A stretch of DNA of 64,000 nucleotides from Angustibacter luteus (GCF_039541115.1 NZ_BAABFP010000002.1:744001-808000), one strand, 5' to 3'; positions 60,401 through 64,000 are shown, numbered from the stretch's first letter. Program-made: the numbers.

Positions 60401-63400
60401 CGCCAAGAGCGTCGCCGGCCTGACCAGCGTCAAGGTCACGACCCACAAGGTCACGACGAACGACGCCTACCACCGCCGCGACGACGTCCCGGCCTTCTAC
60501 GGCGGCGGCGGACTGTCGGCCGAGGGCTTCCTGTGCTCGACCGGCTACACCGTGCAGAGCTCGACCGGAGCCCGGTGGATGGTCACCGCAGGTCACTGCT
60601 TCTCCAACGGCGCGAGCGTCAAGACCGAGTCCGGCGCGAACGTCGAGGGCACCGTGACGGCGCGCACGCTGGCCTCGCTCGGCGGCGGCCCCATCGACGT
60701 CGAGTTCCTCGCCGGCAAGTCGTACGCCGGCCGGATCTTCACCGGTGGCGTGACCAGCAGCACCAGCATCCCCGTGGTGGGTTCGGGCGCCGCGTACGTC
60801 GGCTACACGGACTACTGCCACAGCGGTCGGACCACCGGTGAGCAGTGCGGTCACACCGCGACCAGCGTCACCGCCCAGGTCTGCACCGCGACCGGCTGCA
60901 AGTCCCCGGTGATCGCCTACACCGGTGGCACCGTCCAGCAGGGCGGCGACTCCGGCGGCACGTTCTACGCCAAGAACTCCACCGGCGCGTGGATCCGCGG
61001 GCACGTCATCGCGGGCAACTCGGTCACCGGCTACATCGAGCCGTACACCGAGATCACCAAGCGCTGGGCCGTCACCGCCTCGCTGGGCTGATCAACAGAT
61101 GGGCTGATCACCAGATGGGCTGATCACCAGCACCACACGCTCGACCGGGACGCCCGGGGCCACACGGCTCCGGGCGTTCCCGCGCGCGCTCAGACGTCGT
61201 AGTCGACGACGACGGCGGCGTGGTCGCTCCACCGCTCGGCGTACGTCGCGGCCCGCCCGGCCTCGGCCTTCACTGCTCGGCCGGCCAGGGTGGCCGTCGC
61301 CAGCTGGTAGTCGATCCGCCAGCCCGAGTCGTTGTCCAGGGATCGCCGCTATATGTACACAACCACTACGAACGCGGCTGCCTGACCAGCATTTATCACG
61401 CTGTGTCACCAAACCTCGCGAACGCCGATAGATCGGCACACCAGTCACATCAGCACCACCGGAGCGCCTCGCCCGCTCGGTCTGACTCCGGCCAAACCTT
61501 GGCCCGACACGGCAGTTCTCGATCGCAATCGTCCGTGCATGTCGGAGCTCGGGTCTACGTTGTTCGCATGAGCGCCGGTCAGCTACTGGGTCGCGCGACG
61601 TCGAATACGTCTCGCGTTCTGGCAGGTATCCGCGACGCACTGGGACAGCAGGCGCCAGACCGCCTGGCATTGATGCTCTACGGCAGCGTCGCTCGCGGAA
61701 CGCAGGGCGACGACTCTGACATCGACGTCCTCGAATTGGTCTCCGGCGATGCAGCGACGTATCAGGTCGGAACCATCAACGTGACGCAGTACCGCCCTGC
61801 CCACCTCAGGGCTCTTGCCGCGCAGGGCAGCTTGTTCGTGTTGCATCTACGCACGGATGGCGTTGTCATCGAGGATCGGTTCGGACTGCTCACTCGGACA
61901 CTGGAAGCTTATGAGCGGCCGCTCACATACGCCCCAATATGGGACCAACTGGCGACCGCAGCAGGCGTGCTCGACGTCTCCGCTCACGATGTCCGCGGAT
62001 ACCTCCGCGGACTTGGCCGTCTCGGTGTCTATATCGCGCGCACCGCCGCATACCTTCGCAGCGTCGAGGCGGGCGAGGTCAACTTCGACATCGGCTTGCT
62101 CAGCCAACAACTCGACCAGCCTGGGCTCGCCGACGCAGTTGCTCTTCGCCGTCAGGCGACGTTCTCGCTCTCCGATATCGCAAAGCTGCGTCATGAGATC
62201 GAGCGCATCGTGCCAAACGTGCCAAGCGGCCCTATCGAATCCGTTGAGTCGTACGCCATCGCACATGCAGACCATGGGGAACTGGCAATGCTCATGGCCA
62301 CGGTGTTGACCGATGAAGACGAGCTGGAGTACAGCGCACTCACCCTCCCCCCGTTCTGATGCGTGAACGGATCGCGGTCGTCGGTGACGTCCACGGCAAC
62401 GCTCGGGCGTTGGCGCGAGCCTTCGAGTGGCTTGAGACTTGGGACGGATTGGTGATCTTCGTCGGGGATTACGTAAACCGTGGCCCGGCATCGCGCGAAG
62501 TCGTCGATCACTTGATCCTCGCCAAGGACGCACTCGGCGAGCGCTTGGTGCTCCTGCGTGGCAATCACGACCAAGTGCTGCTGGACTTCATTTCGGGCGA
62601 GAGCCCACGCCGACTGCTTTCGCATGGCGGCCTGACCACCGTCAGCAGCTACCTGAAGGGTACGGAGGCTCAGGCGAGCATTGAGACTTTTCGCGAAACC
62701 TTTCCCGACGGGCATCTACGTCTCCTAGGCGACACAGGGACGCACTTCGAGACCGACGAGATGCTGGTGTCGCATGCCGGCTATAACCCTGACAGACCAA
62801 CAAGTAGGAGGTCAGAAGACTTGGCCTTGGGACGGCATCATGGGATCTTTTCCCGAGGCGCTACTGCACCAAAGGCGCTCATCATCTGCGGCCACTACAT
62901 CCAGAGGGGGATGAAGCCGTTCGAGTCGAGGAACCTGATATGCCTTGACACCGGAAGCGGCACGACCGCGGGGGCTCCGCTGACGTTGGTCACGCTGCCA
63001 GATCGCAACTTCTACCAATTCTACGGAGAGACATGACGGATCTGAAGGAGGCATGTCGGGACCTTTTCGCGGCGCTCGATGAGGGCAAGCGCGTAATCTG
63101 CATCCACTATAGTTGCGAAAACTTCCACGATGTCACCGACCGCCCTGTTGCGGTGAGCGCCATCGCTGTTTCCGAACTGACCGATGCAACAGGGGGACGA
63201 GAGTCAACCGTCTTCTCCATCGCCAATTCTTCAGCAAACCAAGACCCGGTCGAACGCGAAAAGGAGATGTTTGCCAGATTCTTCGAGTATGCACGCACAC
63301 GCCCCGATGCGTTCTGGGTTCACTGGAATATGAACAACGCCACCTACGGCTTTTCTGCACTGATCTCTCGATACCGTTACCTGTTGGGCTCTGAACCCAA

Positions 63401-64000
63401 CAGTCCGTGGCAGAGCAACCGTCTCTTCGATCTTGACTCACTAGTGGGCGCCAGGTACGGCGATCAGTTTGCCAAGCACCCAAAACTCCTGAGTCTTTGC
63501 TCGTTGAATGGGTATTTCCTCTCGTTCTTCAAGGCGGGCCGTGACGAAGCAAAGGCGTTTTCGGACGGCGACTACGGCTTGTGCGAGAGGTCCACTGCGG
63601 AGAAATCACACCTTCTAGCATCTATTTTGACTGACTTCCGTGCGGGATCGCTGCGTACACAAAACTCAGTCGGTTCACTGCACTTTGCATCCGAGCCCCT
63701 AGACGCTGTGAAGGTCGTGCTGGCCATAGGTGATCGCTTTCGATATGTGGAACGGCAACTGCTCCGTCGCCACGCCTCTCGCGACACGCTTAAGATTCAA
63801 GACGAGTACGATGCACAGGATTTGCTCAGGGCGCTCCTTGCCGTGTTCTTCGAGGATATTCGCCCTGAAGAGGTCGCACCAAAGCTTGGCGGCGCCTCCT
63901 CACGCATCGACTTCATTCTTCCCGACTACGCGCTCGCACTAGAGCTGAAGTACGCGCGTAGCAGCATGACTTCAGCTTCACTCGGCGAGGAACTCATCGT

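Follow-up and report, generated by a model that had tools for sequence, protein, structure and literature searches.

We propose that a three-gene cassette in Angustibacter luteus is an anti-phage system derived from Hailong, in which a two-gene signal module is joined to an exchangeable toxic effector and works by guard logic. We hold the chances of this complete reading to be about even, and a defence role of some kind to be very likely. What the analysis shows, and the model builds on, is homology, residue conservation, linkage of the genes, exchange of the effector and a mobile defence context. The cassette lies at the end of the window, the stretch of 64,000 nucleotides analysed here (NZ_BAABFP010000002.1:744001-808000), and consists of three tightly coupled plus-strand open reading frames (ORFs) encoding a nucleotidyltransferase (NTase), a phosphoesterase and a nuclease, each single-copy in the genome. 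The first two ORFs overlap by 1 bp (at 62359); the 376-residue nuclease starts at 63033 and its stop is at contig position 808163, beyond the window. The GC contents of the three genes (0.62, 0.60 and 0.56, compared with 0.72 for the genome) agree with the initial annotation, which had described a low-GC cassette of three genes. The features are as follows.

61190..61338, minus strand: old 3′ end of xth (exonuclease III), stranded at the island's left junction; the two copies align over 149 bp.
61568..62359, plus strand: NTase gene of the HalB subfamily, 263 aa, counted from the probable start; read from 61220, the ORF spans the junction of the island.
61682..61726, plus strand: GSxARG...D51xD53 catalytic motif of the NTase, aligned with HalB D21/D23.
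62330..62332, plus strand: codon of Tyr255, the candidate priming tyrosine of the NTase by alignment with the HalB family, followed by an 8-residue tail.
62359..63036, plus strand: PPP/ApaH-type calcineurin-like metallophosphoesterase, 225 aa, with D10, H12, D37, N69, H70, H139 and H179 intact.
63033..63668, plus strand: effector aa 1-212, the N-terminal domain, which has a DEDD fold and is of the same family as PHROG 8766.
63720..64000, plus strand: PD-(D/E)XK domain of the effector (REase_DpnII-MboI, aa 230-371; D293, E304, K306); the gene continues to contig position 808163.

A DNA search across 30 relatives placed the cassette inside a low-GC island, about 5.0 kb long, that interrupts the 3′ end of xth. 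The empty site is seen in several of these genomes, where the 61190-61338 stretch is joined directly to the remaining xth, and the replacement 3′ end is supplied by the right end of the island (L001 10265-10413, outside the window). An ORF from GTG 61220, where the initial annotation had the cassette begin, starts within the stranded xth end and therefore outside the island. We rejected this start for the NTase and took ATG 61568 as the most likely one, giving a protein of 263 residues that the 261-residue homologue P0002 covers over 100% of its length. No match to a sigma-70-type promoter was found upstream of the cassette. Besides the cassette, an AlbA_2 gene and a small one for HTH_3 lie in the island, and no integrase was seen there. 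The AlbA_2 gene and the ORF at 9598-10224 were considered as members of the system and rejected, as they have no homologue in the related loci. The same xth site is occupied in another relative (G847) by a different insert, which carries an AIPR gene.

The first gene encodes a HalB-fold enzyme of a separate subfamily. It matched HalB (PDB 9dbh) at E = 1.6e-12 as a single sequence and at E = 1.4e-22 as a 44-sequence profile, and its strong sequence matches in the PDB were to HalB only. Its AlphaFold model (pLDDT 90.5) had HalB structure 9dbj as the best Foldseek match (TM 0.82 on the target), with the next-best fold family, ANT(4′), at 0.46; the structural homology to HalB asserted in the initial annotation thus holds. 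The catalytic aspartates D51 and D53, whose HalB counterparts are replaced in the D21A/D23A mutant of PDB 9dbi, are kept in 50 of 50 aligned sequences. On the NCBIfam HalB model (NF051895), the protein scored 109.6 bits, below the cut-off of 190, and six further members of the subfamily scored 96-136 bits. Longer fused forms of the NTase, sought at 579-2000 aa, were not found, which is weak evidence, and no relatives were confirmed in viral contigs.

Two scans listed 117 loci with related NTases (37, plus the best 80 of 99). At a threshold of 80 bits we kept 57 and dropped the other 60, which were mostly short motif matches. One of the 57 (L007) is a canonical Hailong locus, and in 48 of the other 56 the match extends into the C-terminal part of the profile; of these 48, 43 have at least 250 bp downstream and could be scored for the next gene. 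The named related loci belong to Actinomycetota, and the remainder are metagenome contigs. Among the loci listed, a phosphoesterase gene directly followed the NTase in 42 of the 43, the exception being L060. By contrast, none of 12 loci with canonical-type HalB had a phosphoesterase within 2.6 kb; their partners were HalA in three and a WYL gene in nine.

The third component is more variable. Among the 42 NTase–phosphoesterase loci listed, 31 carry the nuclease, four carry a HalA-like gene upstream, none carries both and seven carry neither. Four of these seven are cut by contig ends and two (L057 and L079) have a disrupted phosphoesterase; in the last, L006, a membrane protein is encoded upstream, and the Atlas clusters nearest to it bear the names of PD-(D/E)XK or Mrr nucleases, which we treat as a lead only. 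After removal of copies above 90% identity, the nuclease and the HalA-like gene remained in 29 and 4, respectively, of 44 among the loci listed. The HalA-like proteins, all from metagenome contigs, scored 140-233 bits on NF051894, below its cut-off of 250 in each case, and the one in L075 matched the HalA structure 9nyi at E = 6e-26. The initial annotation had reported no HalA-like channel. This is true of the cassette itself, as a search for HalA near the NTase in L001 gave no match, and it fails for the subfamily, in which four relatives have such a gene. Nor is the order NTase–phosphoesterase–nuclease always kept, as had been stated: L066 and L068 begin with the nuclease gene.

We then compared these partners with the phylogeny of the NTase. 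An unrooted tree of 36 sequences (23 of 59 rows were omitted as long-branch outgroups, near-copies or partial loci) separated 10 canonical from 26 phosphoesterase-linked NTases with support of 100/100. The NTases of the HalA-like loci grouped with the nuclease-linked ones, again at 100/100, and a single clade of all HalA-partnered NTases was rejected (p-AU 6e-52). Because the tree is unrooted and open within the subfamily, we give neither the direction nor the number of effector exchanges. Pairwise identities of the three genes were correlated (rho 0.66, 0.47 and 0.43 over 27 loci; none of 2000 permutations reached them), a pattern that shared ancestry alone would also yield. Given that the phosphoesterase is present in nearly all scorable loci, that the effector differs among them and that the tree groups their NTases, the stable unit is the NTase with the phosphoesterase, and the effector varies. 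The phosphoesterase goes with the NTase rather than with the nuclease.

The phosphoesterase-linked NTases also differ from canonical HalB in sequence. In the original Hailong study, the priming tyrosine of HalB is reportedly C-terminal. Tyr255 of the cassette enzyme is kept in 44 of 44 homologues and, in a mixed set of HalB-family proteins, aligns with the last or penultimate tyrosine in 16 of 16; the PDB alignments end before the C terminus. A tyrosine occurs within the final 16 residues in 46 of the 48 near-complete loci among those listed, the two without it being L060, which also lacks the phosphoesterase, and L082, whose contig ends 86 bp downstream. The tyrosine is followed by 5-15 residues in the phosphoesterase-linked subfamily (47 of 47), whereas 0-1 residues follow it in canonical HalB (12 of 12), and this internal tyrosine and the association with a phosphoesterase may have a single origin. 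Canonical HalB has a GDLF motif (12 of 12), compared with GSLF in 39 of 50 members of the subfamily, and the equivalent of HalB R164 is arginine in just 34 of 50. On account of these two differences, the substrate and product of the subfamily may not be those of HalB.

The phosphoesterase has the PPP-type metal ligands (GDxHG, GDxx(D/N)RG, GNH, H and GH), which are invariant in 29 of 29 sequences. Enzymes of this family act mostly on phosphomonoesters or Ap4A. The best solved relatives are 2qjc (ApaH-like), 4j6o (a metallophosphoesterase) and 5vjv (RLPH2). Because they include RLPH2, which is termed a tyrosine phosphatase in the available passages of PMC12817480, action on a tyrosine–phosphate linkage is plausible for this protein.

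The effector has two parts, both of which had been recognized in the initial annotation. Residues 230-371 match Pfam DpnII-MboI with 142.7 bits (cut-off 27), and the triad D293/E304/K306 is present in 28 of 28 sequences. Towards the N terminus, residues 17-205 match PolB and other DEDD exonucleases (Z 15.0, rmsd 2.9 Å, 169 residues aligned), and the best Foldseek match of the domain is RNase T. By motif spacing and secondary structure, the four acidic positions of DEDD enzymes correspond to H25, S/A/G27, T104 (D/E in 17 of 28) and K191, and the ExoI and ExoIII positions show no conservation of acidic residues. Profile alignments by hhalign were not significant, either against eight RNase_H_2 domains (probability 0.2) or against one DnaQ-like domain (E = 0.066), and for this reason we only infer that the domain is 'dead'. 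The substitutes previously singled out as conserved were confirmed in part: the nuclease clade always has H25, H149 and N159, whereas E29 is found in 15 of 28 and N99 in 24 of 28. Conserved positions of the domain comprise H25, E76, W98, R113, N159, E172, S187 and K191, and six of these (H25, E76, R113, E172, S187 and K191) are kept in more than 95% of 164 domain sequences. From this pattern, a remodelled active site could be made up of E76, E172, H25 and K191.

The same domain is found well beyond the cassette. Its profile gathered 991 clusters. We took 22 of the 150 best hits, chosen mainly because their length was unusual: six carry TIR_2, one CAP12-TIR, one Abi_C and four DpnII-MboI, and ten have no informative family. 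Its commonest form is a single gene for a protein of about 265 aa with a C-terminal hydrophobic helix, as in PHROG 8766 (E = 5.6e-26). We examined 57 such single-gene loci (50 viral, 4 plasmid and 3 chromosomal), which encode 48 distinct proteins, 41 of them with the hydrophobic tail; the available flanks contained no NTase, phosphoesterase, HalA or WYL gene in any of the 57. In other proteins the domain is joined to TIR, Abi_C or membrane effectors, which suits a modular immune sensor. Its frequency in single genes without an NTase means that no dedicated inhibitor is needed there; an activating ligand would explain such occurrence no less well than an inhibiting one, and a strictly inhibitory ligand is disfavoured.

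From these data we arrive at a model with four steps. First, the NTase would polymerize nucleotides, probably dATP, onto its own Tyr255, which homology makes likely; HalB synthesis is described as primed by a HalB tyrosine in the accessible text of PMC13434031. Second, the phosphoesterase would hydrolyse the tyrosine–5′-phosphate bond or trim the end phosphate, freeing the oligonucleotide and regenerating the primer, a step that we hold slightly more probable than its absence; in two-gene Hailong this job would be left to host enzymes. Third, and with somewhat better prospects, the oligonucleotide would sit in the remodelled exonuclease pocket and keep the PD-(D/E)XK nuclease off, with the HalA-like channel as its receptor in the four relatives. 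Fourth, phage nucleases would destroy the oligonucleotide, and the nuclease would then cut DNA and abort infection. The module probably makes an inhibitor, by analogy with HalA. What chiefly supports this sign is that HalA-like channels are paired with the same module and that HalA is repressed by the oligonucleotide, according to the part of PMC13434031 available. The initial annotation had already read the cassette as a Hailong-type guard. Its link to Hailong is strengthened by the retained tyrosine and by the four loci that pair the module with a HalA-like gene, and the exonuclease-like domain does resemble a sensor; the guard sign is uncertain because that domain also occurs in single genes without an NTase.

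The sign could be reversed if the oligonucleotide were a stored activator, tethered to Tyr255 until infection causes the phosphoesterase to free it, after which it would act as a second messenger that turns on the nuclease by way of the exonuclease-like domain. The single-gene proteins with a transmembrane helix are most easily read as ligand-activated, the internal tyrosine is exclusive to the phosphoesterase-linked subfamily, and opposite responses to small-molecule signals are possible among related effectors (PMC12657230, in the text available). We nevertheless consider this alternative unlikely, as the module also serves channels of a kind described as oligonucleotide-inhibited, and no infection-sensing domain is apparent on the 225-residue phosphoesterase.

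Less probable still is a covalent toxin–antitoxin switch of the MNT–HEPN or kinase–phosphatase kind, in which the NTase would nucleotidylate the effector and the phosphoesterase would remove the mark on infection. It would draw on the relationship of this PPP-family enzyme to the tyrosine phosphatase RLPH2 and on weak matches to MntA in the N-terminal part of the NTase. However, the full-length fold is that of HalB and not of MNT, the conserved tyrosine is on the NTase itself, where it matches HalB, and a shared modification site would be needed on three unrelated partners (the HalA-like protein, the nuclease and the membrane Mrr-like protein). Similarly improbable is an N-terminal domain that detects phage DNA ends autonomously or acts as a remodelled, active nuclease, for which the NTase product would be no more than a competing decoy that raises the threshold and that the phosphoesterase could degrade or dephosphorylate to trigger defence. 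The six residues kept across the family would suit such a domain, as would single-gene forms that work without an NTase. Against it, the ExoI and ExoIII positions lack conserved acids, and the nuclease fusion was not found without an NTase in the 648 actinobacterial genomes searched; a domain-based reverse search gave hits in 3 of 267 and 1 of 381 actinobacterial genomes, all of them trios already known. That the genes are chance cargo of the island, with no functional unit or no role in defence, is highly improbable: the full cassette is rare (in none of 400 sampled genomes of the phylum besides G000), but the linkage lasts down to 25% NTase identity and through the change in gene order, and the genes overlap or abut.

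The surroundings of the related loci include defence and mobile genes. Kiwa KwaB and Shedu lie near L065, AbiGi and Mrr near L050, AbiEi near L064 and PIN_8 near L005, and an integrase or transposase near L003, L051 and L063. In a Pfam scan of 67 neighbouring ORFs, defence or mobile functions were a minority and many genes were housekeeping. Neither PADLOC 2023 nor NCBIfam has a name for the cassette or for the single-gene transmembrane form.

We compared the cassette with Hailong (HalA and HalB; Tan et al. 2025) on the basis of the available text of PMC13434031, PMC13276650 and PMC12657230 and of PDB 9dbh, 9dbi, 9dbj and 9nyi. Both share the HalB fold and catalytic aspartates of the NTase and, by alignment, its C-terminal tyrosine, and four relatives add a HalA-like channel. 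Unlike the two-gene Hailong operon, the cassette has three genes, the addition being the phosphoesterase; its NTase falls below the NF051895 cut-off, with GSLF for GDLF and an internal tyrosine. It has no HalA, and in most related loci a nuclease replaces the channel. Hailong is further defined by oligo-dA, made without a template, that inhibits the effector and by activation through phage exonuclease, both of which the cassette may share. With no HalA, three genes and a score below the HalB cut-off, the cassette is classed here as a Hailong-like system apart from canonical Hailong.

Other known systems resemble the cassette in part. Type VII MNT–HEPN (MntA/HepT) also sets a Pol-beta NTase beside a toxic nuclease and uses tyrosine nucleotidylation chemistry. 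MNT proteins have about 110-140 residues and modify a HEPN RNase, whereas the NTase described here has 263, is HalB-like and lacks a HEPN toxin. We rejected membership of this type: the NTase scored 24.9 bits on NF047752 (cut-off 60), and no HEPN family was found on either partner. AgaN-type effectors of short Argonautes (PADLOC Aga_Helical-REase; PDB 23wq) have the same REase_DpnII-MboI domain, but in the cassette it is fused to a DEDD-fold domain and there is no Argonaute or APAZ. PHROG 8766, of unknown function, shares the exonuclease-like domain and differs in being a single gene that ends in a hydrophobic helix with no NTase nearby. Panoptes (mCpol with its effector) is similar in that a constitutive nucleotide signal is proposed to restrain more than one type of effector. 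Its signal, however, is a cyclic nucleotide from a Cas10-like enzyme, and protein priming or a phosphoesterase is not described in the passages available for either aspect (PMC12657230, PMC13712596).

A literature search of titles, opening lines of abstracts and passages returned no description of the cassette; outside its reach lay the original Hailong study, Burroughs et al. 2015 and the supplements of both, which may already list these neighbourhoods. A third gene or another effector is not mentioned in the available portions of PMC13434031, PMC13276650, PMC13712596, PMC13275509, PMC12657230, PMC12483538 or bioRxiv 10.64898/2026.02.27.708500.

More broadly, we tentatively suggest that HalB-type enzymes may provide protein-primed single-stranded DNA as a general signal for no fewer than three unrelated receptors (the HalA channel, WYL regulators and a catalytically remodelled DEDD domain), that the PPP phosphoesterase of this subfamily may be a signal-releasing tyrosyl-DNA phosphodiesterase, and that the DEDD-fold domain (about 1,000 clusters, with TIR, Abi_C, membrane and nuclease fusions) may be a new family of oligonucleotide receptors in bacterial immunity. 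According to the available part of PMC13434031, Hailong has two genes and its poly-dA is probably processed by cellular enzymes that are not named; the three-gene version names a candidate for the processing enzyme and makes this step directly testable. The sensor-like domain, in turn, suggests a function that can be tested for a large family without annotation, which includes PHROG 8766 and the TIR and Abi fusions. Judged from gene content, different killing proteins seem to be combined with one HalB-type tripwire module, and such an exchange of channel for nuclease would show DNA-gated immunity to be modular in the way of CBASS or Panoptes.

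The island that carries the cassette of HalB-like nucleotidyltransferase (NTase), phosphoesterase and nuclease lies at the 3′ end of xth. This site and the other genes discussed around it are as follows (L001 is the A. luteus locus).

Window 60018-61091: secreted protease-like gene
Window 61190-61338 (left junction, stranded original 3′ end), L001 10265-10413 (far end of the island, replacement copy) and locus L218: xth 3′ end, insertion site with 3′-end replacement
L001 8252-9466, + strand: AlbA_2 gene, same island as the trio
L001 9463-9708, − strand: small HTH_3 regulator gene, same island as the trio

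The AlbA_2 and HTH_3 genes are not conserved with the trio, and no integrase was seen in the A. luteus xth island. In the relative genome G847, the xth 3′ end holds a different insert, carrying an AIPR gene. Short imperfect direct repeats of around 19 bp (window 61088-61130) lie just past the stop of the protease-like gene, and a second low-GC stretch (window 48500-52000; GC 0.63-0.66 versus 0.72) lies upstream of a beta-galactosidase-like gene.

Two compared loci hold altered cassette genes. At L072 (150-1415), NTase profile residues 7-126 are joined to nuclease residues 123-376 in one ORF, reflecting either a deletion or an assembly artefact. At L079 (5678-6848), the phosphoesterase gene is interrupted by another that resembles a chloramphenicol acetyltransferase gene; this is probably a cloning-vector or transposon insertion.

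The NTase also occurs beside other genes, including the following.

L006 4813-5865: gene immediately upstream of the NTase-phosphoesterase pair, encoding a membrane protein that may contain an Mrr-like nuclease domain

This single occurrence may represent a third effector type. In Nocardioides (L009 5102-6588), a pentapeptide/membrane gene weakly resembling the Hailong channel HalA precedes a short, very divergent NTase, possibly a further Hailong-like branch. WYL-domain genes adjoin HalB homologues, without HalA, at L133, L134, L136-L139 and L141-L143, often oriented divergently from CBASS-like or ubiquitin-like defence operons; the two homologues scored from these loci reached 214 and 221 bits, above the HalB cut-off (190 bits on NCBIfam NF051895).

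Proteins P0073, P0076, P0126, P0134, P0137, P0149, P0182 and P0198 combine the exonuclease-like domain of the cassette nuclease with an effector of the TIR_2, Abi_C or CAP12-TIR type. At L128-L131 and L144-L196, this exonuclease-like domain is joined to a C-terminal hydrophobic helix in single-gene proteins (PHROG 8766), a form that is common on viral contigs and for which PADLOC and NCBIfam hold no name. These single-gene proteins are candidate stand-alone defence genes.
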